Below, piece after piece: positions 1,985 through 53,133 of a DNA stretch of 64,000 nucleotides. The DNA lies in assembly GCA_010015805.1 (NCBI GenBank), contig ML978123.1, positions 744,001-808,000 on the forward strand. Direction: 5' to 3'. Position 1 is the first letter of the stretch, and the number at the start of each line of letters is the position of its first letter. Both the position numbers and the translations under genes were made by a program. Under the pieces are notes generated by a model. The model worked only from the letters and a program-made list of their open reading frames with translations, made no database searches and was not told the DNA's origin. Origin of the DNA: Rhizodiscina lignyota. Taxonomy: Eukaryota.

Positions 1985-3412
1985 ATGGACGGGTTTGACT
2001 TCAATCCAGACCTCTTGCAGAAGCTGCAGGATCTGCCCGAATGGGGATTCGACCAAGCCACTGAAGGACAGCCAGACACTAACCAGAACGCAGATCTTGA
2101 GGGCACTGGGTGTGCTTCCGTAAGCACCGAAATATCTACGAAGCGCGTGCGAGATGAAACGGCCGATAACGAGGAGCAGCTTGCTCCACCAGACCTCAAG
2201 TCGAGCAAGAGTGGCCAGTTAGTTACAGCAGACGACTTGATTCTTGACGCTATAAACGACATCTCTGAGGAGGAATGGGCGGCTATCCTGAACAATCCTG
2301 GCCCGAACAACGAGCTTGATACTCACGACTCTTCCCCCGAAGCGCAGGTTGGAGCTACCGCAGCTTTTCAGGCTGAGTCCGACCCTTCTGCACCCGCTGG
2401 AACGTTGTTTACACCTATTAGGCTTCTCGAGCATTCACACTTGCTTTCTGGTGCAAATGCTGTTCCCGCTCCTCACCAGTATGCTCCGCCTCCTCAATTG
2501 CTGTCTGCAGCAACAGTCGCAGTACCCCAGCCTCTAAATAATACACAGGTCGTCGATTCGAAGGTCTACAAACTGGTCTTGCCAAACAGGGAGGTGGCCG
2601 CACAGGCGGCTCAAAATAGAGCATACTTGCCTACGCCATCACCGACTCCAGGGCCAGTTCAGTATTCCACGCTTTCCCTCCCCGCTCTCCCCAATGAATT
2701 CGTGCAGGCTGCTCCCATTCCCCCGTCAGTACGGAGGAGCCCTTTTGAGGTAGCTACGCCGGGATGGGCAGACTTGCGACTCATCAAAACTGTCATCACA
2801 GCTGATGAGATCTTGGCATATTTGCCGGAGCACCTGAAGGTCTATGACTGCCTTTTCCGTCTCATTTACAATGGCTTCTCGCAGTGTGACATTGCTGGAG
2901 CTTGTAACTTCTTCCGCGGAGCCGAGTTCGAAGGGGCTATGTTGCAGAACACTATTACGAAACGTATGAAATCGATCGAAGCCGCACGCCACCAGGAGAC
3001 AGGGATGAATGGTGGCCAGCCTTTTAAGGGAAACAAAGAACGGAAGATGCAGCATCTGCAATGGCCGTACTTCGACACGGAGAAATGGGGCGCACCACCA
3101 CGCACGACTCTGAAAGACTTTCCACTGGCCGGGCTAGCAAATGGACTTGTGGTGAGACCTTGGGGAGAAGGACGCGGCCCTCTGTCGAAGTCCATTGAAT
3201 ATGCTGAGATGCATCCGGAGTTGAATCTCATGTTGTCGAACGTCCCTGCAATCATGGCCTCGCAGGGTTTTAAACCCATCGAACCTGCTGGATGTAATAT
3301 CGACAAGAAGGCACGGGAACGTCTTACGCCTTACATTTCCAAGCGTGGGATGAGGTATCCTGAGCGGAGAACAGACCGAACGGACAAGGTCAATCTGCGG
3401 AAGAAGAATTGA
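1985..3412 (+). CDS. Uncharacterised protein, copy 1 of a tandem paralog family (acidic/Pro-rich N-terminus plus conserved C-terminal domain)
   Basis: Intronless 475-aa ATG ORF. Its C-terminal half aligns by eye with the ORFs at 4430 and 7344 (ITADEILAYLPEHL..LFRLIYNGFSQCDIAG; LAGLANGLVVRPWGEGRGPLSKSIEYAEMHP; DKKARERL). Confidence 0.85.
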   Translation: MDGFDFNPDLLQKLQDLPEWGFDQATEGQPDTNQNADLEGTGCASVSTEISTKRVRDETADNEEQLAPPDLKSSKSGQLVTADDLILDAINDISEEEWAAILNNPGPNNELDTHDSSPEAQVGATAAFQAESDPSAPAGTLFTPIRLLEHSHLLSGANAVPAPHQYAPPPQLLSAATVAVPQPLNNTQVVDSKVYKLVLPNREVAAQAAQNRAYLPTPSPTPGPVQYSTLSLPALPNEFVQAAPIPPSVRRSPFEVATPGWADLRLIKTVITADEILAYLPEHLKVYDCLFRLIYNGFSQCDIAGACNFFRGAEFEGAMLQNTITKRMKSIEAARHQETGMNGGQPFKGNKERKMQHLQWPYFDTEKWGAPPRTTLKDFPLAGLANGLVVRPWGEGRGPLSKSIEYAEMHPELNLMLSNVPAIMASQGFKPIEPAGCNIDKKARERLTPYISKRGMRYPERRTDRTDKVNLRKKN

Positions 3413-4429
3413 GATTCAGTCGATCAGAAATGTCTTGGATTGTCCACCCCCCTGATTCAGACATGTTTCTTAGCTCTTTGGGGGTTTGGTGTTCCGGCGT
3501 TCGGGCGTTTCGATTCCCCCTTTATTGGTTGCTCATTCGACCCTTCGCCCTGATGCGATAGGCAGAATATTATCGCGCGCATATTGCTGTTAGTCTACCA
3601 TCTCACAATCAAGAAAATTTAAAGTATTTCCTCGAAACTCTAATAAAGATGGTGAGATGACCAGGAGATTTTAGTTCACCTCATTGTTCCCATGACGAAG
3701 TCCGGGATACGGATACGTTTGCGGAAACCTGTCCCTACCCGTAGATGATTGCTTTTCAAACAATGACAACTGTCTTCCCTGAAAAAATATTAGTCCCGTA
3801 ATCCTTGACGCTTAACTCCGTTGATTGCGACTCTTGCTCATGCCTGGAAGCATATAAGGGTCCCCTATACCTACTGGATCGACCTGAACTAAAGAGCCCA
3901 TTCAGCAAAGATATATACCAAAACTTCCCATAATGTATAGTCCTTCCTATGTTTTCGTTCTCTCAACCGAGGATTCGACTTGAATAGGTCTCTGGACTCC
4001 GTACGTCATGGTGGCACAGCGCCGCACGTCAACGGCCATAATGTCCCCCTTTTCCATCGTCGCAGCATGTGCTGTAGCAGAACATCTCCACCGCTACCGT
4101 CGTCCAATGTCTGCGCACTTCCTTGGCCAACTAGGTTGAATAACGGGGTCCGTCCGTCCCCATTTGTGGGGGATACAAAGCGCTATTGCCTGCACAATGC
4201 CTTTGTTTCTGGACGATGGCAATGAAGACACTCAAGATGAATTTGTGTCGGCTGTCAACACCACAACTGGCCAACCTCACTAATTCTTCACGATGTATAT
4301 TTTCTCTTTACCAGTCCTAAAACTCTTTTGCCAATCATCGTCTGCAAGCGGTTTCGAACGTCCCAATCAACGAATCCAGTTTGTACGCGAAGAAGAACCC
4401 ATCGTCACATACATTTAAAGCTCTCAGCT

Positions 4430-5590
4430 ATGTCATATCAAGAGAACGGGCAGGCGGGCCAGCCTTCGGGGTCTCGTCGTTCACCGACCCCTGAGCTCCG
4501 GCCACCACCATCAATGGAGGAGGCTCTCCGCGAGCTTGATCCTCCAAAGTGGTATCCTTGGATGGGCGGCAGGCCTGGACCATATGATATCGACATGTCT
4601 TCCCACTTCAGGGTTAGCACAGATCAGGATGGCGACAAGATAGTCGAGTTCATTCCGGGACGCAATGAGCCGTCCGAGCAATCAGAACTCGGCGACTCGA
4701 TTCGTCGTCCAGTCAAGCATGGGCGCGACGACGATGACCTTTACGAGGCTCCTCCAAGAAAACAAGGACGACCTAGAAAGTTCCTCGTCCCTCAGCCAGA
4801 ACATGTTATAGCGGGTCCTTCTACGGCTCCGGTCAACCAGCAGATGCCACAGATGGCGAACGGCACCCAGAACGGCTTTGGCAATCCGCCGACAATGCCA
4901 ATCCAGCCAAATGTGGCTCCTGCAGGTTTGCTAAGGCCGTCCCTCCTGGATGGCTCGAAGCTCCAAGGAGCCACCACTATATCAGCAAACATTGCGCTGC
5001 TGAATATTGACATCTCAGCGGAGGAGTACCTCACATTCTTCCCTTTACACTACCGCTGGAGACAGGGATTGCGTCGCCTGATCCGAAACGGTTGGGACCA
5101 GAACAGTATTGTCGGATACATTAACTGGTCTCGGAACCTGATCGGGCGAGACCAGGCCATTGACTGCAACACTCTCGTGAAGCAGATCGGAAGCGCGGAT
5201 GAAGAGGAGTGGGGGAGAAAATGGACCAAAGCTACAAGGCCACGGGACAGGGCTCAGTTGAATCTGAAGCCTGATTCATGGACAATAGCTAATCGCAGAG
5301 TAGAAGACGTGCTATTACGGACTCTGGTGGTTGGCGTTGTTCGTTTTCCGACTGGAGCTGGAGAGGGAGCGCTGACTCGGGCCGTCCGCTACGCGGTGGA
5401 ACATCCTGAGGAGGCTATCATGCTCTCTGGGGTCAACAACTTGATCCGTCGAGAGACTGTCCAGCTTCTGCACGTGCCCTGGGGCCAAAACCTAGACAAA
5501 GATGCTTTGAAGCGACACATGCCCATCATTGGGGCTGCGCAGTGGAGTACGCCCAAGGATTGGGCCAAAAGGAATGGCCTCTGGAATTAA
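4430..5590 (+). CDS. Uncharacterised protein, copy 2 of the tandem paralog family
   Basis: First ATG at 4430 (MSYQENG); the track's start at 4328 is TTG. Motifs ISAEEYLTFFPLHYRW..LRRLIRNGWDQNSIVG; LRTLVVGVVRFPTGAGEGALTRAVRYAVEHP; DKDALKRH. Basic patch RKQGRPRK. Confidence 0.85.
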   Translation: MSYQENGQAGQPSGSRRSPTPELRPPPSMEEALRELDPPKWYPWMGGRPGPYDIDMSSHFRVSTDQDGDKIVEFIPGRNEPSEQSELGDSIRRPVKHGRDDDDLYEAPPRKQGRPRKFLVPQPEHVIAGPSTAPVNQQMPQMANGTQNGFGNPPTMPIQPNVAPAGLLRPSLLDGSKLQGATTISANIALLNIDISAEEYLTFFPLHYRWRQGLRRLIRNGWDQNSIVGYINWSRNLIGRDQAIDCNTLVKQIGSADEEEWGRKWTKATRPRDRAQLNLKPDSWTIANRRVEDVLLRTLVVGVVRFPTGAGEGALTRAVRYAVEHPEEAIMLSGVNNLIRRETVQLLHVPWGQNLDKDALKRHMPIIGAAQWSTPKDWAKRNGLWN

Positions 5591-6632
5591 GCATAGATGC
5601 ACGCTTAGAAATACTTGGTTTTGCGAGTTTGAAATTTGTCAAAAATTTGGGAAAGCAGTCTTAAGAGAGAGCAATAACAGAAATCGCTCGCTGAAGACTC
5701 AAGCACATGAGAGACGCGAAAATGTCCATAGATAACTGAAATCCATGAAATATCAATTGAAGCGCAAACCATTTCGTACGAAGTTCCACAGTGAATTTGT
5801 GGGTTGTCCTCGCTCATTGAGCAGCTTTGGCCATATTCGGCCTCATGAGCTGCCCAATGGATATCGCAGAAAACCCGCCAGTGGAGTCCTGACGGCTTCT
5901 CCAGTGTACGACTCGAATCCCGTATGTTCACCAGACATGAACTGTGTGCTAATGTCGCCATGAGCGAGACAGAATCCGTCAGATAATGCCGATGGACGAA
6001 ATTGCGGTATGTGATATGCGGTACGTGTTCATCCGCCGGTGTTCGCCCACTGGCAACGAATGGGAATGATCTGTACCCGTGCTAATCCGTCTGAGAGAGG
6101 TAAAGCAGATAGCTGCCCCCTTTATCGCCATTCATAGCTTGTATATAGACCTGAGTTAGTTCATGGTTAGTCTTCGTTCCTTGTGCCTATTAGATGTCCG
6201 CCCATCTCAGCATGAGATCTCGTAGGAGAGACGAATTCACGTCCTACGTAGTCGAACACACTCTAGATGATAGTGGCTCCCTCGTTGGGAAGTATCAGGC
6301 GTGAGGGACGCTTCCTGGACGATTCGAGGATATGTGAGGTCGAATACAACCTCGGTGATAATGGCCATTCTGCGGGTCGTCATCATCGTCATCGCCCTGC
6401 GCGCGGATGTGTGTTCATAGTAGCCCTCCTCTTTGCCTAGACTGTGTCCACTTTCTGAGGCTAAAGGTGTTGTAGAGATGATAAATCGCATAGAAAGGCT
6501 TCTGCTCTTCTTCACTCCATCAATCTCTCCATCCACCTGTCTCTTCGACTCCAGCACGTTGAGCACAGCTCTTTCGACGTCACCAAACCCTTTGTACCCT
6601 TTTACAAAGGACTCCAAAAGACCAACAGTAAA

Positions 6633-8210
6633 ATGTCCATACAAGCAGCCCAGCATGGCGCTCTGCCGCTCAGCGCGCTAGTCGAACCTCTCACCGATTC
6701 CGAGTCATCGTCGCAGCTGCCAATCGCATATCGGCGAGCGCTCTATCATCCACACCCATGGTTTCCATGGATGGGAAGCTTGCCAGCTTTCCATAAAAGC
6801 GACGCCTTGGTACGACCTGCGCATCTCGATGGTGATGAGCCACAGCTAACACTTCAGATCGTCAACCAGTCGACCGCTCTGACAGCTCAGCAGCAGCAGC
6901 AGTTGGGTCATCGGTTAGTCAATCATAGGGAGAATTCGTGAGTGCTCTTGGGTTAAGTGCTGATGAGTTACAGGTGTACCCAAACGAAGCGAAAGAACCA
7001 AGCGACCGAACCTCCGAAGCCTTCGCCCAAACGGCAGAAGATGAACCCAAAGGGCGCGCAATAGTAAGTTGGTTGGTAAGAAACATACCTGTGATAGTAA
7101 CCACTGAGCAATGCGGATAGGAATAGGATCCCGAATACATCTCCCACTCCTCACGGTATTCAAGACATATCGAGCTCAACCCACACGAGCATCCAGAACG
7201 ATAGTGGTGATGGCGTCCATGAGTACAATGTCAAGAAGGACATCACCGACAAGAGCAATGCCCAACTAGCCAACCCCAGTGGCTTCATAGACCCCGCCCT
7301 CCTCCTAATTTCGCGTCCAAGTCCAAGTCTAGGTCTAGGTCTAATGGTTGGCGAGACAACTAACAATACCGAGTCTTCCGGACCAAGCACGTCACGTGGC
7401 CCAGGAGTGGACTTCAGCGTCTATCCGGCTTTCCAGGGGAATGAAGGCAATATGGTGCAGGGCCAGACACCGGTCTCCAGTAACTCGTCTCATCCTCCTG
7501 TTTCGTCATCGCAGCACGTGACACAACAGACTCCGCTCCTACAAGTGCCGCAACCAAGCACCACCAGAGCCCCCACGATGTTGCAGAAGCTCCAAGGTGG
7601 GACGCCTCTGACAGCAGACATTGGTTTACTCCACGTTGATATCACTCTCGAGGAGTTCTTGACCTTCTTCCCGGCTCATTATCGCTGGAAGCTGAGCCTC
7701 ATCCGTGTGATCTACAACGGATGGACACAGGCTGATATTGCTGCGTATCTTAATTACGCAAGGAACTTTCAAGGCAATATGGCAGTGAGAGAAAATTCCA
7801 TCAGGAAGGTAATCGTGGAGGCGGAGAAGACACACAAGGGTGGTGTCTTTACAAACAGCAACCGTCCGATGAACCAGCCGGTCCATGACATGAAGCCAAC
7901 AGGATGGGAGCCAGCGGAAAGGTACAAGTCGGACCTTAAGGACACCCTGCTGGTCTCGCTGGCAGCTGGGGTGGTGAATTGGCCGGCGACGGAAGGTCGG
8001 GGGGTATTAACGCAGGCAATTGAGTACGCGCTGAGTAACCCAGATCGGAAGTTGCGATTGTCGGACGTGGATGGGTTCGCCGCCATACCTGGGATTGCGG
8101 GAGTCCAGCAGCCAACTGGCCCGGCGACAAATCATGACAAAGAGGCTCTAGAGCGTCTCCAGCCGATTCTTCGCCAGAAGCAGTGGCGCAAGCCCATGGG
8201 AAACATATAA
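6633..8210 (+). CDS. Uncharacterised protein, copy 3 of the tandem paralog family; 5' exon structure ambiguous
   Basis: ORF 7344-8210 carries ITLEEFLTFFPAHYRW..LIRVIYNGWTQADIAA; LVSLAAGVVNWPATEGRGVLTQAIEYALSNP; DKEALERL. Its frame is open back to 7101. Upstream ORF 6633 is in the same frame and shares PxW(F/Y)PWMG with copy 2. Donors GTGAGT at 6938 and GTAAGT at 7064; acceptors at 6973 and 7120. Confidence 0.75.
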
Positions 8211-11424: not shown

Positions 11425-12054
11425 ATGGCCGCGCGAAGGGCACTCTTCCAACTCTCATCCCGCACACTCGCGATATCCGCACCAAAAGAACCAATTCGCC
11501 ATAGCTTGCGTGTCCTAGGCAAAGAAAGCACAAGATGTCTTCGCACGGCGACCATAGCAGCATGTAGAACATCCTCACAAGTTCAGAGAATTGAGCAAAG
11601 ACGATGGCACTCAACACCATCCGAAGTGCAGAAGCCAAAAGTCTACAACTTCGAAGACGTACGCTCCCCGCTCCGCCATCCCATCCCATCCCACACCCAA
11701 CTGACCCTCCCCTCCCAGATCCAATCCCTATCGTCCTCCCCCTCGCCATCCCGCATCCTCATCGACGTCCGCGAGCCCGCCGAGCTCTCCGCCTCGGGCA
11801 CCATCCCCACCGCAATCAACATCCCCGTGACGTCGCAGCCCGACGCGCTCGCCCTGCCACCAGACGAATTCTACGACCGCTTCGGGTTCGACAAGCCGTC
11901 GCCCGAGGCCGAGGTCGTGTTCTACTGCAAGGCGGGCGTGCGGAGCTCGGCGGCGGCGCAGCTCGCGCTGCAGAACGGGTATGAGAAGGTGGGGAATTAT
12001 AGGGGGAGTTGGTTGGATTGGGAGAAGCGAGGGGGGCGGAAGGAGGCGGTGTGA
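11425..12054 (+). CDS. Single-domain rhodanese / thiosulfate sulfurtransferase with probable mitochondrial presequence (RDL-like)
   Basis: LIDVREPAE, GTIPTAINIP, active-site loop FYCKAGVRS and NYRGSWLDW. Arg-rich N-terminus. Likely 60-nt intron at 11659-11718. Confidence 0.9.
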   Translation: MAARRALFQLSSRTLAISAPKEPIRHSLRVLGKESTRCLRTATIAACRTSSQVQRIEQRRWHSTPSEVQKPKVYNFEDVRSPLRHPIPSHTQLTLPSQIQSLSSSPSPSRILIDVREPAELSASGTIPTAINIPVTSQPDALALPPDEFYDRFGFDKPSPEAEVVFYCKAGVRSSAAAQLALQNGYEKVGNYRGSWLDWEKRGGRKEAV

Positions 12055-12388: not shown

Positions 12389-15300
12389 TTACAGCATCGG
12401 TGCCATTACCATCCTTAACCACCTCCACAACTCGCGTGCCAAGGTCTGCTGCTCATCATCCATCATGTCCTGGTCCAGTTCTAAGACAATGCCAGCCGCC
12501 CGAGCGAAATCTTCATAATCTTCCTCTGGCAATCCCTTTAAGATCTTCGTGATCGACTTCTCGCCTTTCCCTCCATCAGCGAGTAGCTTTTCCAGAAAGT
12601 CTCCATTAACATGACGTGGGTCTTGCGCTCCACCCAGCGTTCTTAGCACGTGCAAAGCATTGCCATCGAGAAGGGAGAACTGATAGACATGCCCATCAAC
12701 AGCTACGCCAACGATATCGTCTGCGAGGACGCCTTGTGGAAGCGCTGAGCCTTGTGGGCGAAGCCATGGTGGCCTCACAAGCCCACGACGTAGCCGCATG
12801 ATGGAGCGTGGAAGGTGAGCTTCGAAAAGTGTTGGGGCTGCAAGTTGGTTTGCGCGACGCGGCGGGCAGAAGAGGCCAGTAACAGACTGATTCTTGTCGG
12901 AGATGAGGATGAGGTTGGGATGAGAATCTACTCGGCCAGGTGGTGCGGAGTCAATTTGCATTGCGTCTGGATCTTGTGTTTGTATAGTGTTCGTGTGCGG
13001 TCTGTTGCAGTTCAAGTGAAGGTGATGTAGTGATTCTCGCGCCTGGGAATCTGAGAAGATCGGTTCGAGGCGCGCTGACGTTGGCCTCATATCTGTGTTT
13101 GCATGACCTGATGTAGTGGCATGCGTGCCGGCGGTCGTATTCCTTTCATTATGTCCATTCGTTCGGTCTTCAATGAATTCAAAGGCCATCAAGGAATCCT
13201 CTAAAGTTGAGACGTATACGTAAGGTGGACTGGCCGTAACTTGCAGACCGATAGACGGCAATTCGTACTTGCAGAGCCTTGCTGATCTTTGGTCACCGTT
13301 AGTTCGCCGGCACATCAGCTTGTTGTATTGTTGTTAAACTTACTTCCTGGTGGCAGCATCCATTCTCAGGATTCTCAACGCGGTCCCGGTTGTGATAGCA
13401 AAGTCTGTCTCACCTAAAGCTGCAACGCTATAAACCGGGTTAGGATATTCTGCTTTATGGACCACCCTTGTACTGATCCCTGGTCCACCGTCCGCTTCTA
13501 TTCGCCGGAGACTTAGGAAGTAAAGGACGCCAGTTGGATTGCCTTTCTCATCTTCCCTACCAGTGCCCACTAGCAGATGCACATACTTTTTCCCATCCAC
13601 AGAGATCTTCCATTCAAGTAAGCAGAATATCTTCTCATTAGGATACAGTGGAAGGGTGTAAAGATTACGCGAATCATCGTTCTCGTCAACCGGAGGCGTA
13701 TCAGCGGTGCTGATGAATTCGATTTGACCTCGGGTACATCGTTTGCCCGCCCAGTTCGGTCTCGGAATTCCCATATCTACCAAGTCTGTCCTTGTCGAAG
13801 CAACGACCATACAGTCGAGTTGTTCAAGATAGAGTAGGCGTGTTGGCGTACCTTGTTCGTGAAGCGGAAGTAAAGTTGGCACAGCTTTGGGCTGGAGATC
13901 AACAGAGGCTATGCTCAGTGTGGATCCAGATACAAGGACAGCCTTGCCCTCTAGATCGGCCCTTTCTAATAGATATGGATTGGCGATGCAGCATAAAGCC
14001 GAGATTGGAGTTCGCCGAGGGGTAGGCGAACCACGAAAGTTAGATACGACCTCATCAATGTGGAGAGTACCATTCCCCTGCAGCGTCAAACGGCAAAGTG
14101 TCGGTCCGCAGATTGCAAAGGCGGTACTGTGTGGTGAAGCACTTTCCGGGACAAGAATTACAGGAGTAATGCCAAGAGCGATGAATTGTTGATCCAAGGC
14201 AACAATTTCTGGGCCCGTAGGCGTATGATATGAGCGATAGCCATTGAATTCGGCAGTCCCATTTGCGTGTTCCATTCTCATATCTGGGGCAAGACGCACC
14301 GTGAGAATCGAACCATCTCTCATGCCACATACAAGCATGCATGTGATATCCGAGTGGGAGGATTCGGTATCGACACTCCGATGCAGCACAGTAAGTGACT
14401 CGCATATAGTCGGTGAGTTGGCGTACTCGGGTCGTGCTAATCTGTACGTCAAGCACGGCGACAACGTGTCCCGCTCGCCTCGTCTGAGCAGATGCAAGGT
14501 TCCGTCGGCTGTGCTTGCAGCTGTGTACAACGTTGCACCGAGCTCGAAAATTGCCACTGCGGTCGGCTCCGAGGAAAGAATGAACAGTTCTCCAACGGTA
14601 TCATCGGTGTTTTCCAACCCAGGCGGTATATTGGCTTGGATCTGGACTAGACACAACGCGAAGGCCGTTTCGACACGTAAAGCCGCAACAACTGTCGAGG
14701 TACTCCTTGAAATAGAGGCGCAAATGATGTGAAAAGAACCAGGAGGTCCGAGTATCACCTCGGAGAATTGTTTGAGGGTGTTGCCATCGCTGTATAGAAC
14801 TTGTAGAGAAACATCCGTGACTTGGACAATCTGTCTCCGAGGTAAAATGGCAACAGCAAGAGTTGGACGATTGAAAACCAGGCCACAATTCTCCTCGTTG
14901 AAGTCGCCTTCCAACTCATCGTCTTCTTTCGCATTTGTTGCTATCGAAAGTCGCACAAGCGTGGTTTCCTCAGCGTGAGACAAAAAGAGCAAGACATCTC
15001 TGGTCGTTTCCAGGACAGCCCAGAGTCGAATAACACCTGAGAATGATTCAATTGTCCCAGTGAATTTTGTCAATGCCTCGACACCAAGCCTCAATTCTGC
15101 GATCGCGCCATGTCGTGGACCCCTCATTGCCGTAGTATATATCGATGTGCGGCCCTCAGAGGCACCCACGCCCGACCGTTGGCCAAGTCCAGAGACAGTC
15201 ATATCAAAACTGGCAGACCAATTGTGAAGGGTTTCGACAGTCTGTGGTGTCATGGCTTCTGGGCGAGTAAGGCCATAGAGGAGATCATTAGGCCCTAGTC

Positions 15301-16637
15301 CAATTTTCAGCACTTGACCTGGACTTTCATTGCCCGTGGACACCAAGAAGAAAGGTCCCCGCAGCGTTGTATCGACCTCGCAGTAGGCAAAGGCTTGGTC
15401 AACGAATCCACCGAAAAGAGCCATCTTCCCAGACATGTCTGCTTCTCCATTTTCGAGATGGAAGTAGTAGACATATCCATCTTCTCTGACGATATGGAAA
15501 GCTTCCTTTTTCTTATCAATCCACTGCACATTGCGTACCGCTCTCGACCAAGCTGTCCACAGTGGACGACGAGAAGAGGTTGCTGGGAAAATTGGGGCTT
15601 GTTGCTGTGTATTTAGAAATTCGGTCGGACCGTAAAGGTTCAGTGAGCGTGACATAGCATCGCTGCCGATGAGGTACTCTTTTTCATACACCAAGAGGAA
15701 AGAAGGAGAGTGCTCCATAGGAATGAGTAATTGAGGTTTTTGGAAGCCTGCCAGTATTAGCTGATTGCCCTTTTGTGGGATATATTGTCATACCTGGCCC
15801 AAGAGGATGAGTATGAGAGCCACTGTGCTTGAGGGTAGGATTTTCGGCGAAATTCCAAGTGTACCACAAAATCTTCGTTCTCTGTTCGCTGGCAACAACT
15901 AGGACCAGAGCAACGTGGTCTGGGTAATCTGATCCTAGTGCAAGGAAGTCCATGCATTGGATAGTGCCTTCGACTCGCAACATGGATGCAGCCGCAATTG
16001 GGATCCATTTTGATCTTCCATGGGTATCAAGATAGACTTTGCCGAGAGCCTCGAGATCTCTCAGTTGGAACATCATTAAATTATTTTCATGTGCGGCAAC
16101 GGCGATGGCGCGGTTGTTTGGGTCCACCGCAAGCAGATGCCCAGGTGTCCTAGTAACATCACCTGGGTCGAAGAGTGGCCATATATGTTCATTAAAATCG
16201 ACACAGTTGGGATTTGTTTCATCGGCTATGAGAAATCGAAGCTCCGGCGGATCTTCCAACACAAAGACGAGAAACTGGGGTGGTGGGACATTTTCGGCGG
16301 GTTCCTTGAAGTACTCCTCTGGTACCTTTTGTGGCGGATGTCCTTCAGCTGGTTCTGGCTTTGGACCTTCTCCAATCACCGCGGCTGCTCGGATTCGTGA
16401 AGAGAAGTCGCATATCGTCCCAACATGGCGTAGGTGGCCATTCTCAGACATCTCCTTGATATGGAAAAAGTCTTCTCCAACAAAGACAACATTCTGGCAT
16501 TTCTTTCGATATAGTCTTGCTGGAAGAATCTTCTTGATGGCTGGGCTCCTGAGCAGAGATCGTGAGAGGACACCCACTTCTGGTGCAGCTTGCCGTGAGC
16601 GCTGGGGGAGATGATGATCGACATCCATACTCTCCAT
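12389..16637 (-). CDS. Mms1/DDB1/CPSF-A-like multi beta-propeller protein
   Basis: Three long ORFs (16637-15684, 15718-13340, 13315-12389) are joinable by GT-AG introns. N-terminal GVLSRSLLRSP, VVFVGEDF and PGHLLAVDPNNRAIAVAA resemble the Mms1/RSE1/DDB1 N-terminal propeller. Family call is from motif recognition only. Confidence 0.75.
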
Positions 16638-21012: not shown

Positions 21013-24000
21013 CTACCAATCGATGCCGTTTGCGCCTCTCTCCCCGCCTGCCAGAATCATCTTCGCCGTTGCTATCTCACCCTTTCCACCCTCAAAATGA
21101 CTCGCTTGCAGCCCTTTCCTGCCCTTCATCCGCTCCAGCTTCTTATCCAACTTCTCAAATGGATCGGTCGTCTCTGCCTTCTTTATCTTCCACTTCTCCG
21201 TGCCCAGCACCGAGTCCAATTCCTCGACTGGCGGGAGTTTGACGTACACCCAGCCATCATCCCTCTCCTCCACCGGAAACGTCGCAATGTTGACCTGGTC
21301 GTCGTTCCCGCACTTTCCTGCGCTCTCGCCTCCAAGTTCATAGTTGCGCTTGTGGTACGGACAGCTGACCCAGAGTTTATTGTTCGCGAGGTCCTCTCCG
21401 ATCAAGCCGTCGGCGAGTACGAAGGCACGCTTGTGCGGACACATCTGCTGGGTGCAGTAATACTTGCCGCGAACCTTGAAGACGGCTAGCTGCGTGTCGC
21501 CGCGCTTGATAGCCTGGCTATCGCCTGTTGCGACGTCTCGGAACAGGTCGGCTTTGACCATGGGCTGCCACGTCAAATTACTCCACTTGGTACCACGGAA
21601 GTCCTCTTTAACTGACTCCTTGGGCCAGTACGACGGCCGTGCCTGGCCGCGCTCAACGGTCGGTTCGATTGTGTCGACAATGTTATCGTCAGTGTTGGCA
21701 AATTGATTGAAGAGTTTCCGACGCTCCGGATCCTTGATGACTTCAGTCCATTCGCAGAAATATGATCCAACAAGCTCCTCCATCTGCTTTTCCAACTCCG
21801 CGCAGATACCGAGCTTATCCTCTAAGATCACTTCGCGCAGATATTTTATGCCGCCCGGCAAGTTCTCGACCCATCTGGCCGTTCTCTGTAGTTTATCTGC
21901 GGTGCGAATGTAGAAGCTGAGATATCTGTCCAGTATGGGAATGACGTCGTCTGGCGGTACGTCCTTGGCCAGCAGTTCCGAATGTCGGGGTTTTGCACCA
22001 CCATTACCACCCACAAAAATGTTGAAGCCCTTCTCTGTCGCGATAAGGCCGAAGTCCTTATTTTGTGCTTCGGCGCACTCACGAACGCAGCCAGATACAC
22101 CACCCTTGATCTTGTGCGGGCCTCGGATGGACTTGTATCGTTCCTCCAGCCGAACGGCCATGCCCACGGAATCGCCAATGCCAAACCGACACCATGTGGT
22201 TCCCACACACGACTTGACTGTGCGAAGAGACTTTGCATATGCATGACCAGACTCCATCCCTCCCTCAATGAGCTCGGTCCAGATTGCAATAAGATCCTGT
22301 TTCCTAGCTCCGAACATGTCGATTCTCTGCCCACCAGTGATCTTTGTATAGAGGCCGTACTTCTTCGCGACAGTACCGATGATGATCAGCTTCTCAGGGG
22401 TAATCTCGCCGCCTGCAACCCTGGGAATGACTGAAAAGGTACCGTTGCGTTGAATGTTTGCTAAGAATTTGTCGTTCGTGTCCTGCAACCCTCTTCGGCC
22501 CCCGCCGATAATGTGCTTGTTGAAAAGCGATGCGATGATAGATCCAATTGCTGGCTTACACGCCTCGCAGCCCAAGGACTGGGGGTCCTTGCCGCATTCC
22601 TTCATGATATCTGGGAAGGACTGTAATTTTTTGACATAAATGATGTTGAATAGATCGGCTCGTGAATACTCGAAATGGGGGCAGAGGTGATTTTTTACCT
22701 CCTGTCCCATGGACGCCATGGCCTTGTTGAAGATGGTCGTGACCAGCGGCATGCAGCCTCCACAACCAGTACCAGCCTTTGTGCAGGCCTTGACGTCGCC
22801 AATGCTCTTGCATGTACCATCTTTTATGGATTTGACTACATCGCCCTTATTGACATTGTGGCACGAGCAAATTTGCGTATCATCGGCGCTGATTGATAAT
22901 TAGAGAAGTCCCCAAATCGGAAAGAAGAGTACTCACAGGTCATCCGCATCATCATCTTTCGATGCACCAACAATAAGTTCGCTTGGAGGGATTTCCAGAG
23001 GTTTCTGGTTCTTCACCAGTGGTACCAGTTTGATGTAATCTTTCGTATCGCCAATCATCATGCCTCCAAGCAAGTATTTGCCATCCATCGTGAAGAGGTA
23101 CTTCTTGTATACTTGTGAAAACGGGTCTTTGTAAGTCAACGCCTTGACAGGAGGAGGTGGCGGTCCATCTGTCAGCGATTTGACACGCTCTTTCGCCTCG
23201 ATGATGCCCTCCTTCTTCCCGCCGTGTCTCTTTGTAGGCAGTTCTTTCGGTCCGTCCCTATCTGCGAAAAAGTCGCCAAAGCTCGCAACCTCAACGCCGA
23301 GCAATTTCAACTTCGTGCTAAGATCAGGCCGTTTAAATGTCCGCGGAGAGTGTGCTTTAGCTTGCGTGAGATTGAAGGCTAAGACGTCCGCCATCTCTAC
23401 ACCTGGTGCGATCAGGCCAAACGTTTGATTCTCCCAGCTTGCGCATTCTCCGATTGCGTAGATGTCGGGAATAGACGTAGACAAATCGGTCTGTACTACA
23501 ATGCCACCACCTCGATCGGCACATTTGATGCCGGCTTTGCGCGCCAGGTCATCGCGAGGTCTTATACCAATCTGCAAGCATGAGCGAAAAGCCAATTGAC
23601 TTGTCGTCGAGATCGACTTACCGCAAAGCAGATGCAACTGCAGTCCATTTCTTCGCCATCCTCAAACTTTACACCAATCACGTTGTTATCCGCGTCCGTA
23701 TGGACCTTCCCAACTCGCTTGCTGAGAAGAACTTCCAGTCCCAGTGCTTGGACCTGCTCCACAACCATGCCACCAGCATCACCATCAAGCTGTCTTGACA
23801 GCACCCAACGATTCCGTTCTATCAACTTTACTTTGCTGAATTGCTCAAGGTCCATCATGGCTTTCGCCGCTTCTAGGCCTAGCAAACCTCCGCCCACTAC
23901 CGCGCCCGTAGTGCCTTTCTTCGTTGCCGCAAAGTCGATGAGGTTCTGTAGATCGTTGATTGTTCGATATACGAAGACGCCTTTTGCATCGTGGCCTGGT

Positions 24001-25286: not shown

Positions 25287-27960
25287 CTAGAAAAATAGCA
25301 GATCAGAGTCTTTCCAACCAATTTCGTTCAACGCCAGATGCACGCTCTTCTCCAAAGTCTCTGGGCCGCATATCAGCACCAACGTGTCCGCCGTCTTTGA
25401 AGCATGCTCTCTCAGTAGTGGCGCTGCTATTCTCCCTCTCAATCCTTTCCAGTCATCGGGACCCTGAGTTAATGTATACAACAATTTACACTTTTGCTCA
25501 TTAGCCATAGCAAATTGATCCAGTTCCGCTTTGCATAGAATATCCTCAAGCAACCGATTTCCATCGAGCAACGTGCAGTGCGTGTGATCGTCCTTGTCTT
25601 GCATCACTGCTCTGAAGACCTGGTATATGGGCGTGATACCACTTCCACCACATATCATGATGAAGCGCTCAATAAAACGTTCCTCTTGGTTGACAGCACA
25701 CTTCCCGCGGCCAAGATACTCAAATTTGCCGATTGGGCCTTTGAAGTCTATGGCGTGGCCGATGGGTATGGCGTCCATTGCCATCGACATTTTTCCACCT
25801 GCTCGCTCTTTGGTGTCAAAGTATATCTTGACCAGTACATCGAGGTATCCTCTCTTCGTGGTCTGTGAAATTGGGGTGTAGCTTCTGATGATAGCTTCGC
25901 GCGTCACTGGGTCGCGGATGCGCACCATGAGATGCTGCCCGGTAGGCAATCCGAGAATCTGTTCGTCATGATCGAGCTTGAATGTAAAAATTCGAGTGTC
26001 CCAAGAGACGATTTCCTTCGCTTGAAGTACGGCTTTAGTCCAATTGCGAGGGTCCAGGAAGATGGGTCGCGGTTCATTCGATTCCGGTTTAATTTCCCCT
26101 TCGCTGAGAACACGGCGAGATGCCTCGTCCAAGGTACCGATATGATATGTTGGCATCATCGCCTTTGCAGTCTCACTGTCTGTTTGATGTCAACACTAAT
26201 GTCACATAGGCACTGCAAATTAACTTACGAATCGCCATGAATTCATCCGTAGCATCCAGCCCAGCAGCAGATATAATACTCTGTGCTCCACCTGGATGCT
26301 CCTTGAGAAATGCAGTGCCATCATAGACTTCGCCGTTCACAACGAACCATGGATTGCTGTCGTTGTCGTGCTTTCGTAGCTCGTCAATCGTGATCTCGTT
26401 ACTCAGGCCATCCTTCGTCATCTTGATCTCTGCTGATGTCTCCTCTTGCGCTTCTTCTTTGACGGATTCTCCTCCCAGCCTATCACCCCAGTAGCCATTC
26501 ATTAAATTGCCCCCCTCCTTCTTCACGCGCTCCATCCAACCGCCAGGCATGAGCGCGGGTTGTGTTGGGTGCTCAAATCGTATTGTATCTCCCTCCAAAT
26601 GTATAACCACTCTGAACCAAGCGTTGTTCATCATTCCCATCACTGACCAATACATGTCTCTTGGTTGAAGATTCATGCTTTCATCCATTGCTCGGACCAC
26701 GACGTCTTGTGCTGTCTTCAGTTCCTCGATCGGAATATCGAGCTGCCAGAAACACCAGCAGAAACATGTATCTCTCCAACCCACGTCTAAAGTACCACCG
26801 AAAAGCTCTTGTTCTCTCGCTTCTCGATACCGATCTTCCGCATAATCAATATTTGCGAGTCGCCATGTTTTGCCCTTGTCCAGTGATAGTTCCACTCTTG
26901 TAATGCGACGCCCATCACCTGCATATGCATATCCTCTCACTCCGTACCTCTCCAGGCGGCTATTCAGCGGTAATCGCTCATCATGAGCAGGACATGCGAT
27001 TGCTGAATTTGTGCTCAAACCATATATTGCGTATCTCTCATCCGTCCACCACTCGGGCTTGTTCGCTGCCTCTTCCGGGCTGATCATGGTTGGTAATACT
27101 CTGTTGTCATAGATATGGTACCAATTGTCGCTCGGCCCCTCAGTGACTATCAGCTTTTTCAGCCATTTGACGCTTCGGCCACCAATCTGCCCGGGTACCA
27201 CGGCGCGCAACGGCTTGCCATGGTCTGGCAGCAGCATTTCCCCGTTCATTTTGTATGCAAGCATCATTCCGCGGTTTGGGTCCATAGCCCAGGTGAGCCT
27301 CACACCTGTGCCATAGTAACCATTTGGTAACTTGTCTGCGCCTTCCATGCAGAGCCACCGCGCTCTTCTTTTTGGTTTTGCTCGACGCAGCACATCGCCC
27401 ATGACAACACCAGTGAACAACGCTGTCGAGAGCCCGGCGGGACCCCACGAAAAACCTTTCGTCTTTCGTACAACATTTTGCTCCTTGCGTCTGTTACCGG
27501 CACAAACAAGGGTGATTGGGTAAGTCTTCTGCTCGTAGTCCGCGATGAGGTCTCTGAGAGTGATCTTCAGAGGATTACTGACGAGACCTTCGACAGTGAA
27601 CTCCCAGTCGGGGATGTCTGCATCGTTTACTTCGGGCACGGGTCCATGATTCCGGACATAGAAAAGTTCGGGGCTGGTGAGAAAGCCTTCGTTGAAAAGG
27701 TCGGTGAGAGGTGCTTCAACATTGAAAGGATGAACTCCAGTTAGCCGTATTAATCTGGGATCTCTTGGGACGTGAAAGTCTGGCGTTTTCTTGTCGACTT
27801 CGAGGACTGCAGTCGGAGGTACTGATGGTGGTGGCAGCGGAAAGTCTATGCACTCTGAAGACGAGCTCTCTCCATCTTCAGTATCTGGAGGCGTAGGGGG
27901 AAAGCTGACTGGAGTGACGCCTAATTTTGACTCGATTTCGTTCTTCGTGGCTGCTCCCAT
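25287..27960 (-). CDS. niaD: Nitrate reductase [NAD(P)H] (Moco, cytochrome b5 and FAD domains)
   Basis: RLTGVHPFNVE, FYVRNHGPVP, TLVCAGNRRKEQN, GGRSVKWL, cytochrome b5 HPGG..IHSE, RSYTPIS, GKMS, CGGSGITP and CGP. One intron at about 26180-26228. Confidence 0.98.
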
Positions 27961-33462: not shown

Positions 33463-34506
33463 TTAATCCAAAAGTGCAAACCGCCGCCTTCCAAAGCCTC
33501 CAACCCCGAGGCCCCAGCCAGGAGATACTGAACGAGATCCTGGCAGTGTTCGAAGCGTAGGTGGGCCTAGCTCATGATCGACTTTATCTTCCAGCTTGTT
33601 GATTCGACGATGCAGTATATCTAGATCCGGATCACTTGTAGACGCCATGAGCAGCGGTGAACCGTTGTATCTTTTTCTAGGAATTCGGGTATCAAATGGA
33701 GGCATGTCCCAAGCGTCTGGATACCCATAAGGCGGAACACTACGGCTCCTCATGAGTGGCGGTCGTCCATATCCGACAGAACCAAAGTTTGCACCGAAGC
33801 TTGGGCCGAAGCCTCTGAAGAACCCTCGGCCACGACTTGGGAAGGCAAGCTCAACACTCTGAGCTTGGTGAAAATCGATGCGACGAAGGGCCTCGAGGAA
33901 ATTGCCAACCGCTGGTCGGGGGTTTTGTAGAGCGACTTCGTCAAGTAGGGCTGGGTCAGCAGTGAGAAACTCTCGCATGCAATTGATCAGATCCGGTTGC
34001 GGCATCCTCGCGTTCATAATCGAAACGCCCCAGTGGTCAAGAGCATTCCAATCTCTCCTCACGATTTCCTCCCCGTGTTTATTGAAGAAGCTGGCAAGAG
34101 ATGAGGCGATACGCCTGGACTCGCTGAGAGAAGAGATCTCAGCTAGACACATGAATAGGTTCAACGTCTTCGGATATTGAGATGTCATGGCATCCATCGG
34201 ATCCGGGAGATAAGTTTTGTCCCGTAGTAACTCATCACCTAGTAAGTCTCGGAGCGCCAGCGATAGACCAGAACAATCACCGCTCCGTTCAGACAACCCT
34301 TTCACTACCATTTCCCAGACGTACAACATCTGATGAGGAGTGATGTAATTCGAATGTACGAGATCAGAGTCGCGTATCAGGATGTTAACGTCAATGTAGC
34401 CACCGTTGGTTGCCGCGATTCGTGCCACTCGAGGAAGGTTCATTTGCAGGATTTGGTAGTCCACCGGCCACTGGCCGGAGCCAACCGAAACAATGATTTC
34501 GAACAT
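33463..34506 (-). CDS. Hypothetical protein (helical N-terminal domain plus Gly/Arg/Pro-rich tail)
   Basis: Intronless ORF of about 347 aa from the first ATG at 34506, with protein-like composition. No family recognised. Confidence 0.7.
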   Translation of the reverse strand: MFEIIVSVGSGQWPVDYQILQMNLPRVARIAATNGGYIDVNILIRDSDLVHSNYITPHQMLYVWEMVVKGLSERSGDCSGLSLALRDLLGDELLRDKTYLPDPMDAMTSQYPKTLNLFMCLAEISSLSESRRIASSLASFFNKHGEEIVRRDWNALDHWGVSIMNARMPQPDLINCMREFLTADPALLDEVALQNPRPAVGNFLEALRRIDFHQAQSVELAFPSRGRGFFRGFGPSFGANFGSVGYGRPPLMRSRSVPPYGYPDAWDMPPFDTRIPRKRYNGSPLLMASTSDPDLDILHRRINKLEDKVDHELGPPTLRTLPGSRSVSPGWGLGVGGFGRRRFALLD

Positions 34507-38801: not shown

Positions 38802-41800
38802 ATGGCCGACGTAGAGGAGGCTCCGCCTCCAGCTACCGCAGGAGACACTCAAGAACGGGGAAGAGAAAATGGGGAAGTTCCGGAGGAACAACGGGAGCAA
38901 GTGCACGAGAATCAAAGGCCTCAGGTGAAGGTCAAACCGTCCGAGGACCGAGTCCCTATCGCTATAGACGGCATACCAAACTCCGCTTCTACTCCTACAA
39001 TAAAACAGACACCAGATGTGCAGTCGCCAGATGCGCCTTCGCCTCAAATGGGCACTCCAATAATCCGAGAACCTGGAGATGCTCCTGAAGCACCAGTGTC
39101 GAGAACTCCGCCAACCAGGCAGCGAACTGAATCCGTCTCTACCACTGCCACTGCTGGCGGTGGCCGCTCCTCTACACGCAGCTCCTTGGTCTTTGTGACC
39201 ACTGCGTTAGAAACAATTGCTAGTTCAAAGGATGCAAGGAGGAACAAAAAGCTTGGAGATGCTGCGCAGAAGGCTCTGTCAGCAATCAAGAGTGATGGTG
39301 ATCCTGCGCGCATCAACCCAGAGGTGCTGTTCGAACCATTACAGCTTGCAAGCGAGGCCCATACAGTCCAAGTTGTAACAACCGCCCTCGACTGCATTGG
39401 CAAGCTCATTAGTTACTCCTACTTCTCCTCTCCTGCCGAACCCCAGCCCGAATCACCAGAACAGCCCCCACTCATCGAGCGCGCAATTGATACGATATGC
39501 GATTGCTTTCAAAGCGAGGCAACGCCGGTTGAGGTGCAGCTCCAGATCGTCAAGAGCTTGTTGGCTGCGATATTGAACGATAAAATCGTGGTGCATGGAG
39601 CTGGGTTGCTGAAAGCTGTGAGGTTGACATACAACATCTTTTTGCTCAGCAAGAGCAGCGCAAACCAGCAGGTCGCGCAAGGAGCGTTAACGCAAATGGT
39701 TGGCACTGTTTTCGAGAGGGTCAAGTCGAGATTGGCCATCAAAGAGCAGAGAATCAATCTCAGCAAAACTTCTCTCGGAAAAGAGTCAGACGAAACTGCA
39801 GAAGGCGAGACTAGCCTGGACGGTATAGATGTCTCCACAGTCAACGGCGATGCTGCGCCTAGCGACACGGCGTCTACAGCTCCGAGTGATATGCCAGTCG
39901 AGAAGCACGATGGCCCAAAAATCACACTGCAAAGCTTTGAGAACCGCAAGAGCTTCGACGATGCAAAGATTAACGATAATGCGCCCACTTTGGTGACGCG
40001 CGTCAAAGCACATCGAAAAACGTCTGCGAAAACAGCGTCGACAAGCGACGTCTCCACACCTGTAGACCAGAATGGACACACACTTGACGAGGACGAAGAA
40101 GATGAAATATACATCAAGGATGCATATCTCGTTTTCCGCGCCATGTGCCGACTCAGTACGAAGTCTGTTCCCGTCGAGCATGCCTTGGACGTCAAATCAC
40201 AGAGTATGCGATCAAAGCTGCTTTCTCTTCATATCATTCACACTATCCTTTACAATCACAACTCTGTGTTTGTCTCTCCATACTCGACAATCAAAAGCAG
40301 CACCCATGACGAACCTACGTCGTTTGTGCAAGCTATCAAGCAATACCTTTGTCTCTCACTGAGTCGCAATGGCGCATCTAACGTACCCCGTGTGTTTGAA
40401 GTCAGCTTGGAGATCTTCTGGTTAATGATAAAGAACTTGCGAGTACTGCTCAAGAAGGAAGTCGAAGTCTTTCTCAAGGAAATCTACATAGCAATTCTCG
40501 ATAAGCGCGCAGCACCAGCTTGGCAAAAGCAAGCTATCCTCGAAGTTTTCAACCGTCTAGCAGCTGACGGTCGTGCGCTCGTCGAGGTATACCTCAACTA
40601 TGACTGCGATCGTTCAGCTCTCGACAACATCTTCGAAAGGATGGTTGAACATCTCTCAAGAATAGCAACTGTGCCAATTTCTGTCACTCAAGTCCAATAC
40701 CAAGCTTTTCTTGAGCACCAAATGAAATCTAACTCCAGCCTCTCCGACTGGCAACACAGAGGCACAATACCGCCGAGTTTGGCAACTGCTGCCATTGGAC
40801 TCAATCAGGATATGGACCAAGGCTTCCCGGCAGAATTATCCATGAAACAAGAATCCCTCGAGGCACTTGTAGAAATTCTACGGTCTTTGGTCAATTGGTC
40901 GAACAATGGCCCTGGTGCTGAGCGTTTGAGCATGCGAGAACCTGAGTCTAGGAATTCAATGGAAGATATTCGCTCCTCAATGGAAACGAGAGAGACTAGC
41001 GGGACTTCACCCATCCCTCCTACAACAGGAGGCACCGACTCGCCAGGCACTGCAACTCCTATCCCAGAAGACGATCCAGGCCAGTTGGAGAGGGAAAAGC
41101 GAAGAAAAACTGCCATGACGAATGCTGTCCGCCAATTCAACTTCAAGCCCAAGCGGGGAGTCAAAGTGCTGATCAAGGAAGGCTTCATCAAATCTGACTC
41201 TCCTCAAGACATAGCCGTCTTCCTCCTAGGCAATGATCAGATCAACAAGGCATCCCTCGGCGAGTTTCTCGGAGAAGGTGACGAAAACAACGTCAAAATT
41301 ATGCATGCCTTTATCGATTCGATGGATTTCCGGCAAACTAGATTCGTGGATGCTTTACGACGATTCTTGCAGAGCTTCAGGCTCCCCGGAGAGGCCCAAA
41401 AGATCGATAGGCTTATGGAAAAGTTTGCCGCCCGATACATCACCGGAAATCCAAAGGCTTTTGCAAATGCGGAAACGGCATACGTACTTGCATACAGCGT
41501 GGTCATGTTAAATACGGATCAGCATTCTCCCAACATCAAAAACAAACGCATGACCCCCGAGGACTTTATCAAGAACAACCGTGGCATCAACGACGGTGCA
41601 GATTTGCCAGATGATTACCTGAGAGGTATCTTTGATGAGATTGCGCACAACGAGATCGTTCTTAACACCGAGCGAGAAAATGCTGCGAACTTGGGCATGA
41701 TTCAACCCGTGGCGAACACTGGCTTAGCTGCAAGCATTGGACAAGCACTATCAGGGAGGGACCTGAAACGAGAGGCGAGTGCACAGGCTAGTGAAGAAAT

Positions 41801-44800: not shown

Positions 44801-44934
44801 GAATGTTTGAGGTGAAGATGGGAGTGGATTGCACTGCATATGTTGGCATGAGCTCTGCTTTAGGGAGCGTTGGGGCTACACCGACTAGTCCAAGAGGAAG
44901 TCTTGGTGGAAGGCGATGGAGTCGAGGAAGATGA
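38802..44934 (+). CDS. SEC7: Large ARF guanine-nucleotide exchange factor Sec7/BIG
   Basis: DCB and HUS regions (YLNYDCD), Sec7 domain FRLPGEAQKIDRLM and LAYSVVMLNTDQH, and HDS domains (LDSLRQLSMRF, IRSGWRTMF). Two introns near 42940 and 43363. Confidence 0.97.
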
Positions 44935-51306: not shown

Positions 51307-52570
51307 CTAAACCGGACTCTGATTTTCCCTCGGCCTCACCATCCTCAGCCCACTTATCTTGCTCCCGCCCGGTCCCAGACTCATGGTCTCAAAGTTATTC
51401 TCCTGCCAACTCGTCGACACAATCAACTCGCCTCCCTTGGATGCCAGCCCTTCCGCCAACGCTATGATCGGCGTATACACATCACCCCAGCGTTTGGGAA
51501 GCTCGAACTGTGCAAGGGCATTGCTCACGAACGGGCCACAATCGACACTCAACTCTACATTCTGCAGCGAGCTGAACGGACGGTCGGAGCACGTCGGCCC
51601 ACGTTTTGAAAAGAGTTTGGCGATGCCGGATCTCTGGGGCTCTTTGGGGCATGTGTAGTAAGATTTCGGGTCTGCTGGAGGCAGGATGACGGCAATTGCT
51701 TTCTCAAGCGTGTATTGCGGGAGATGATCGCGCCACTGAACGATTGCGGCTAGCGAGATGGTGGTGATGAGGCTGAGGCGAGGACGCAGGATGATCATGG
51801 TGAAGTCGATGAGCGTTTGACAGGACGTAAAATGGAATCTATCGTGGCTGTAAAGCATGTGGATGGTTTCCGAGTATCTTTTGTTACAGGTCTCAATCAG
51901 CAATTTTTCGTTCCACAGACCGCATAGGGTGGATCATAACTTACATTTGCCGGCAGCTCAGCAACACACTGAGCGGTCGCCAATCCGATTCCTGTACGAC
52001 CTTGAGCATGGTGGCGTCTTGGTTGTACTCTGCCTGCCCTTCTGGTCCAGTTTCATTGTAGTAGTCCTCCGATTCAACCATCTCGTCAAACCCCAATCTC
52101 TTCACCTTCCCAAACCCCACTCTCTTCCTCCCAACTTCCACGCCGTTCACCAAGCCAACAACTTTGCCACCCATCACATATCCCCAAATCATCTCTCTAA
52201 TCTCAGCTGGCAGCATCAGCAACTTTGATCCCTCCTGCGCCTTTGTCTTCTGCCTTTTCAACCTCCATCCCACCAATTTCCCCTCCATACCATCTTTCCC
52301 TTCCGTCGGCAGCGTCAACCGCCGCGTTCGCTTTTGATTCAACGGTCGCGGAATCCTAGACAGCATCTCTTTCCGCTCCCTCTGAAAGCGGCGCTCTTGA
52401 ATGCGGCCGGTACCGCAGAAGCCGTGAGCATTGGGATCAAGACTGCATGAGCAGCAAATGCACCAGAGTTTGAAGCATATGAGAAAAGAAGCATGCAGTG
52501 CGAATTTGCCTGCGGCTATTGCATATTTCTTCGCGCGCTTTTTGACTCCTTGAGTGTCGATCTTCTTCAT
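51307..52570 (-). CDS. Fungal F-box-like (DUF7730/2EXR-type) protein
   Basis: SKLLMLPAEIREMIWGYVMGG, then across an intron at about 51879-51943 LSVLLSCRQ-I-YSETIHMLYSHDRFHF. This is the usual LPxEIR / LLxCRQIYxE signature. Confidence 0.7.
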
Positions 52571-53133
52571 TGCGGCACAAGCTATACTAAGACCACGTAT
52601 TCCTAAAGAAAATTTGAAGGTGAGATGCACCAGAAAAGAAGAGATGGGAAAGATGATCTGACAATTGTCGGGAAAGGATTTATGGAAATATTGACAAGTC
52701 TTCACAGCCTTATTGTCTTCGCAGCCTGGTGAAGAGTGGCGGGCTGTGTACATCTGCGCCACAGTATCCAAAATCCTCCTCGAGTATCATTCTCCAATCC
52801 TGCTTCCAGTCAACAGCTTTGGAAGCGACCCGTGCATCAGATTTTAAACTTGCGCACCCTGATTGGCAGTTGATCAAAGCCTTGAAACCTGAGGGGCCAA
52901 AGTGAGCCACTGGAAGATGTTGCGCGAGAACAATTTGGGGGCGACAGTTACCAAATGCTACGCAATCTCTAGAATATATCGATGGCATTCGATTAACAAT
53001 ACTCAATGCTGCGTATGAACACAAACAAAACAAAGAGTCGAGAGTGGTATACGTAATGAGAAGAGCTCATGGAAAAACCCAAATGACCTATGCCGTCCTC
53101 CACCCAACGTTCCAACCCAAAGACGCTCGTCCT

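Follow-up and report, generated by a model that had tools for sequence, protein, structure and literature searches.

The window considered here is the whole of a 64-kb stretch of fungal chromosomal DNA (64,000 nucleotides, G+C approximately 50%) from Rhizodiscina lignyota, a Dothideomycete of the order Aulographales (assembly GCA_010015805.1, contig ML978123.1, positions 744,001 to 808,000). Near its start lie three consecutive genes, g1, g2 and g3, which are anciently duplicated, intact members of one protein family. Their products have in common a collinear C-terminal domain of approximately 200-210 amino acids (aa), which is tentatively read here as a DNA-binding module.

The three genes and their common origin

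All three genes are on the + strand. The first, g1 (1985..3412), is a single-exon coding sequence for a protein of 475 aa (P0001) with a long N-terminal region rich in proline, serine and glutamine, to which the family domain is C-terminal (2726..3397, residues 248-471; profile match 2.5e-100). Gene g2 (4430..5590) is likewise a single-exon coding sequence, for 386 aa (P0002), with the domain at 4934..5587 (residues 169-386; profile match 1.8e-107). A public protein library contains sequences identical to the products of both. For g3 (6361..8210, 513 aa) there is a public gene model, P0004, carried by its source as a hypothetical protein of R. lignyota; the identical P0004 maps on the window as four exons (6361-6408, 6555-6937, 6974-7063 and 7190-8210), with the domain, the part that was modelled structurally, at 7569..8195 (P0004 residues 301-509; profile match 1.9e-101). 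Gene g3 therefore extends beyond the last-exon frame (7344-8210) on which a preliminary description of this DNA, made from the sequence alone, had relied, and the span 1985-8210 given there still contains all three complete genes.

Some details of the g3 model are less certain. There is an alternative start at an in-frame ATG at 6633, and the first exon (6361-6408) is uncertain. At 36 nt (6938-6973), the second intron of the public model is much shorter than is usual in fungi; with the GTTAGT at 6914 as donor, it would instead be 60 nt long (6914-6973), would keep the frame and would remove eight codons (LVNHRENS) from the protein.

The relationship between the three proteins is clear from pairwise BLASTP comparison, with 30% identity between g1 and g2 (expectation value, E, 2e-19), 35% between g1 and g3 (E 2e-30) and 39% between g2 and g3 (E 1e-47). 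Outside the C-terminal 210-225 residues, to which these matches are limited, the proteins have no significant match to one another. The three-way alignment of the domains spans 237 columns, of which 48 are invariant, at a mean column identity of 57%. Synonymous sites are saturated among the copies (proportion of synonymous differences, pS, 0.73-0.77) and the nonsynonymous proportion (pN) is lower, at 0.43-0.52; the duplication is therefore old and the reading frames have been retained. The ratio of nonsynonymous to synonymous substitution rates (dN/dS) was computable for g1/g2 alone, where a value of 0.33 is unreliable at such divergence owing to saturation. The copies have no repeat in common at the DNA level, direct repeats being 14-23 nt at their longest. 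When the window was scanned in six frames with the family profile, no fourth copy appeared at E<=10. The preliminary description had proposed an old duplication with intact frames and a shared domain of about 200 aa behind divergent N-termini, and both proposals are borne out, at identities of 30-39%; the five conserved blocks that it listed are all present in the translations and collinear in the three-way alignment.

A quick maximum-likelihood tree of 78 domains, which took in 75 of the 144 domain rows from outside the window by protein id (an order that roughly follows E-value), places g1 with P0005, a protein from a Logan assembly, and P0006 (support 100). Genes g2 and g3 are mutual nearest relatives (40% identity) and are placed with P0018 and P0019 (support 93). 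It follows that g1 separated from g2/g3 before several lineages had diverged. That the triplet consists of functionless, decaying duplicates or of annotation artefacts is extremely improbable, although every database name of a family member is 'hypothetical': the frames are open for 475 (g1), 386 (g2) and 339 codons (g3, last exon), pN lies well under the saturated pS, g1 retains 58% identity to P0005, and conservation across the class supports a structural model at a mean predicted local distance difference test score (pLDDT) of 92.5.

An unnamed family of Dothideomycete proteins

Membership of the family was defined by full-length match to two profiles of approximately 210 positions (A1 and A2), and g1, g2 and g3 all carry its motifs, E-x-L-T-F-F-P-x-H, R-L-x-x-N-G-W, D-L-A-x-G-V-x-x-P-x-G and L-T-x-A-I-x-x-A. 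An exhaustive HMMER search of 1.84 billion representatives with the three-domain profile returned 498 cluster representatives at E<=1e-3, with 155 remaining at <=1e-10 and 16 at <=1e-30; the family details given below are drawn from the best 150 of the 498. Word-indexed searches were almost empty, g2 returning only itself and a 35-sequence family alignment returning no protein at the 'longer' setting and four at the 'near' setting. This reflects a limit of sensitivity rather than an absence of relatives, because the exhaustive search found 498 representatives.

The family has no counterpart in Pfam. No Pfam-A (2025) family matched g1, g2 or the last exon of g3 at E<=1, and 35 domain members scanned at E<=10 gave no recurrent family, merely 11 families hit by one member each (best E 0.0075). 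Among 64 members of at least 500 aa no match reached a curated gathering score, the two sub-cut-off matches being DUF2399 at 17.6 bits (cut-off 23.4) and Zn_clus at 17.1 (cut-off 21). Inventories of transcription factors built on Pfam would miss this family of about 500 diverged clusters, because none of the 101 family proteins scanned has a Pfam domain.

The proteins are already public as hypothetical proteins, in a family without a name or a Pfam model. Source names exist for 23 of the 34 members looked up and all read 'hypothetical' or 'uncharacterized', the remaining 11 coming from Logan or ENA assemblies. All 23 named members belong to the Dothideomycetes according to taxonomy look-ups (Neocucurbitaria sp. 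VM-36 being assigned to the class via its genus), and they represent 19 species in five orders: Pleosporales (14), Mytilinidiales (2), Patellariales (1), Aulographales (1) and Mycosphaerellales (1). The family is thus provisionally restricted to this class, which is described in the 101-genomes paper as the largest fungal class, with pathogens of most major crops (PMC7082219). Terms related to the family were not found in the main text of that paper.

The domain sits at the very C-terminus of family proteins, with a median of three residues after it and 185 before it. The N-terminal regions (28,371 residues in all) contain 10.2% proline and 9.5% serine and, judged from this composition only, are probably disordered. 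The domain itself has a median isoelectric point (pI) of 8.8, with values above 8 in 93 of 149 domains and of 9.3-9.9 for the hmmsearch envelopes that hold the domains of g1, g2 and g3. In one alignment (A6) of 12 Pleosporales members, P0020 among them, some 70 further residues on the N-terminal side of the domain are conserved (consensus ARPWGLQRILTH...SPFDPIHSTFPP), and the domain boundary therefore varies among subclades.

Local clustering of the family seems to recur in other species. Three members from Sporormia fimetaria (KAF2742313, KAF2742321 and KAF2742327) are each recorded on a contig of 139,225 bases, two from Lophiostoma macrostomum (KAF2647398 and KAF2647401) are each recorded on one of 20,261 bases, and the accessions in each set are near-consecutive; on the strength of these same-size contigs and accession numbers they are apparently neighbouring genes. 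Metagenomes scanned with the g1 subclade yielded no relative, and a scan with a Pleosporales subclade gave two loci, of which one is a weak fragment. The 7.5-kb locus L001 carries a single copy, with no second in the 5 kb upstream, and neither supports nor refutes a tandem arrangement. Domain copies also occur within single proteins. P0030 of S. fimetaria (1161 aa) has two full copies that are mutual nearest relatives in the tree (support 97), and P0145 of L. macrostomum (865 aa) has one full copy and weak partial matches (E 0.006 and 0.04).

Predicted structure and possible function of the domain

AlphaFold2 modelling of the g3 domain with a 35-sequence alignment gave a confident all-helical structure (mean pLDDT 92.5, predicted template modelling score 0.90). 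Helices at domain residues 27-33, 41-49, 54-65 and 75-90 are followed by a long ordered loop and by C-terminal helices at 128-131, 146-156, 164-170 and 189-201. When folded alone, the N-terminal lobe (residues 20-95) still reached a pLDDT of 86.5. In the g3 gene its three-helix core (residues 41-90, helices 41-49, 54-65 and 75-90) is encoded at 7689..7838 on the + strand. Five of the six structural matches listed are helix-turn-helix DNA-binding domains that align to this lobe (SETMAR, VqmA, small terminase, RptR and KorB), and of the 50 neighbours that score best against the isolated lobe some 40 are DNA-binding domains, at scores within the range of common (chance) helical arrangements. The alignment to these neighbours spans the three core helices, the same stretch that the preliminary description had highlighted.

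Conservation across 147 domains is concentrated at a few positions. E29 (144 of 146), P35 (142/146), R46 (143/147), R65 (129/147), P139 (144/147) and D190 (132/134) are near-invariant, and conservation is also strong at F33, F34, H37, W40, L47, N50, G51 (120/147), W52, L128, L131, G134, V135, L147, T148 and A154. The sequence of helix 75-90, by contrast, varies, lysine or arginine making up a fraction of 0.26-0.45 at residue 74, just before it, and at residues 75, 79, 80, 83, 84 and 87. A conserved scaffold carrying a variable helix is, on these alignments, the pattern expected of a specificity-determining helix.

Collectively these features suggest that the family consists of class-restricted DNA-binding transcription or chromatin regulators that diversify by local tandem duplication, a reading to which a probability of roughly 40% is attached. 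It is favoured because a low-complexity N-terminus, a basic C-terminal domain, a helix-turn-helix-like lobe, patches resembling a nuclear localisation signal (NLS) and local duplication occur in combination. In mechanistic terms, a long and probably disordered region rich in proline and serine would precede a basic, all-helical, two-lobed C-terminal domain of about 200 aa, and this domain would bind nucleic acid, most likely DNA, through the helix-turn-helix-like core of its N-terminal lobe, with helix 54-65 in the positioning role and helix 75-90, which is variable and moderately basic, in that of recognition. The proteins would be nuclear and regulatory, and the family would grow by local tandem duplication. 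A more far-reaching version, that the domain is a previously unrecognised two-lobed DNA-binding fold defining a new Dothideomycete-restricted class of transcription factors whose recognition helix has diversified through tandem arrays, is put forward as a tentative possibility.

Basic patches are visible in all three proteins. The small exon of g3 (6974..7063, +) encodes a basic stretch, TKRKNQATEPPKPSPKRQKMNPK, that looks like a bipartite NLS, and g2 has the patch RKQGRPRKF (4757..4783, +; residues 110-118, read from the translation), the GRP core of which we take to give it an AT-hook- or NLS-like look. Further basic patches noted by eye are TKRVR and the C-terminal LRKKN in g1 and KRK...KRQK in g3. 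An AT-hook, in which basic residues flank a GRP core, was considered as a family trait and rejected, a stricter regular expression finding it in one of 152 family proteins; the Pfam AT_hook model has no match in g2.

Several observations weigh against a family of DNA-binding regulators. In a helix-turn-helix the positioning and recognition helices are separated by a turn of 3-4 residues. In the model the loop between helices 54-65 and 75-90 has approximately nine residues (66-74) rather than a tight turn; a four-residue turn (50-53, NGWT) does occur, between helices 41-49 and 54-65. No Pfam helix-turn-helix model matches, HTH_23 appearing in one of the 35 members at E 0.078. Conservation is strongest not in the putative recognition helix but elsewhere, in helix 27-33, the FFPxH loop and the C-terminal lobe. 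The folding and structural search of a single lobe covered the N-terminal one. The restriction to one class is provisional because it depends on 23 named members and on the best 150 of 498 representatives, the other 348 of which might include other classes. Finally, no paper on the family was found by locus tags or by topic, among topic results judged by title and the start of the abstract.

The preliminary description had taken the residue spacing for that of a helix-turn-helix. The three-helix core of the N-terminal lobe shows such a resemblance at scores in the range of chance helical arrangements, with no Pfam match and no tight turn before helix 75-90. It had also ascribed an NLS-like patch to each copy, and such patches can be seen in all three sequences. 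Its view of the domain as unassigned agrees with the absence of a Pfam family from the window proteins, the 35 domain members and the 64 long members, and its view of the family as lineage-specific holds as far as sampled. It had named in advance a Pfam match, non-significant alignments and a cytoplasmic protein without a helix-turn-helix as contrary results, and none of these was found.

A second possibility, nearly as likely as a DNA-binding regulator, is that the domain serves in protein-protein interaction or as a scaffold, the proteins being adaptors whose lobe docks short aromatic peptides, possibly including their own PW motif. A structural match to the PEX14 N-terminal domain and a conserved aromatic patch point in this direction, whereas the preponderance of DNA-binding domains among the best lobe neighbours (approximately 40 of 50) and the basic character of the domain in most members (median pI 8.8) do not. 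The motif itself is a short aromatic sequence common to g1, g2, g3, P0007 and P0009 (WYPWMG, WFPWMG, DLPWM and DLPEWGF), in regions that otherwise do not align. In g2 it reads KWYPWMG (4547..4567, +) and in g3 PWFPWMG (6756..6776, +), both located by a regular-expression scan, and g1 has the related DLPEWGFD (2030..2053, +). It could serve as a short linear motif for interaction. The regular expression finds it in seven of 117 N-terminal regions, five of them within the triplet's own subclade (a count made without a significance test), and it is not a family-wide ligand because it is present in so few of them.

The near-invariant polar residues might also form a site between the lobes, as in an enzyme or ligand-binding domain of new fold, which is considered unlikely. 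Several members have W, S, C, I or A in place of H37, the two acidic and two basic invariants would suit structural salt bridges equally well, and no cofactor motif was recognised. Enzymes, moreover, do not usually carry long N-terminal regions of low complexity.

Several other candidate relationships were rejected. An internal duplication of the domain is contradicted by the lack of profile similarity between the N-terminal and C-terminal lobes (hhalign probability 0.3%). Ty1 Gag p22, the sole family matched in a profile search of PDB sequences, is treated as noise (E 0.48-0.56 and 13 bits with three sequence variants) and does not appear among the structural matches listed. In the ESM Atlas the best score, 0.77, belonged to unnamed phage clusters, and the best named cluster, T4 gp59 N (0.91, 134 shared features), was recognised below threshold and is probably wrong. 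Apart from these rejections, a predicted complex of the g2 and g3 domains scored 0.00, with controls not run and alignments unused, which is no evidence for or against a heteromer.

The surroundings of the triplet bear on its origin. A Pfam scan identified a cytochrome P450 (9606-10934), a rhodanese-domain protein (11425-12054), a propeller protein of the RSE1/DDB1/CPSF1 type (13340-16637, - strand) and a nitrite reductase with NIR_SIR and Rieske domains (21013-22752, -). The last neighbours the gene for nitrate reductase (25287-27960, -; Mo-co, cytochrome b5, FAD and NAD domains in two open reading frames, ORFs, split by an intron), the two forming a nitrate-assimilation pair. Beyond them are a Sec7/BIG1-type ARF exchange factor (38802-44934, +; DCB, HUS, Sec7, HDS and BIG2_C domains in two ORFs) and an ORF with DUF7730, a fungal domain of unknown function (51941-52753, -; E 5e-9). 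For five further ORFs (212-522 aa in length) Pfam gave no match at cut-offs of E<=0.001 and E<=1e-5 (950-1588, +; 12389-13315, -; 33463-34506, -; 55448-56098, -; 57672-59240, -). The triplet's neighbourhood gives no hint of a mobile element or of a biosynthetic cluster.

This setting is relevant to a further explanation, that the domain is the domesticated two-part, paired-like helix-turn-helix region of a Tc1/mariner or pogo-type transposase that has lost its catalytic domain. Such an origin appears very unlikely in spite of the weak resemblance of the N-terminal lobe to SETMAR. The triplet is set among housekeeping genes, with no terminal repeats or repeated DNA around g1-g3. Neither the 35 domain members nor the 64 long members have a Pfam transposase or helix-turn-helix match, and the two lobes are as dissimilar as the hhalign value indicates. 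All 30 of the clusters looked up at 90% identity contain one or two members, and there have therefore been no recent bursts.

The family is well defined and functionally blank, and its functional reading comes from a weak structural analogy. It is best described as a putative family of regulators, with a lobe resembling a helix-turn-helix within an otherwise unmatched, possibly new fold. If DNA binding is true, the family would add a lineage-specific layer of regulators that could underlie class-specific traits, and it would offer a tractable case of regulator diversification through tandem duplication. If it is not, the domain still merits structure determination, being confidently predicted and nearly without structural neighbours.

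Relation to known domains

The nearest relatives by name are the 'hypothetical protein' entries of other Dothideomycetes. These are true members of the family, as exemplified by COCMIDRAFT_93819 of Bipolaris oryzae (profile E 2.6e-12) and K432DRAFT_115133 of Lepidopterella palustris (E 4.3e-35), yet no name, Pfam domain or publication was found for them.

Among domains of known function, the three-helix bundle of the PEX14 N-terminal domain, which has a peptide-binding role, aligns to model residues 6-64 in a register unlike that of the helix-turn-helix matches. It has no sequence similarity to the family, whose domain is far larger. The two-part regions of paired domains and Tc1/mariner proteins (Pax5/Pax6, SETMAR and Mos1) show a weak structural similarity to the N-terminal lobe. 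However, the lobes of the family are mutually dissimilar (hhalign 0.3%), its domain is approximately twice as long and lacks a sequence signal, and the catalytic domain of Tc1/mariner transposases is present in none of the 64 long members.

The closest known structures for the three-helix core are helix-turn-helix domains, namely the N-terminal domain of the phage G20c small terminase, KorB/ParB, the LuxR/NarL type and region 4 of sigma factors. The family differs from these in having no sequence match at the Pfam level, in the loop of approximately nine residues before the last helix, and in a C-terminal lobe of about 100 residues to which nothing in them corresponds. It also has an extra, highly conserved N-terminal helix and the FFPxH loop, and the scores of the matches are in the range of chance helical arrangements.

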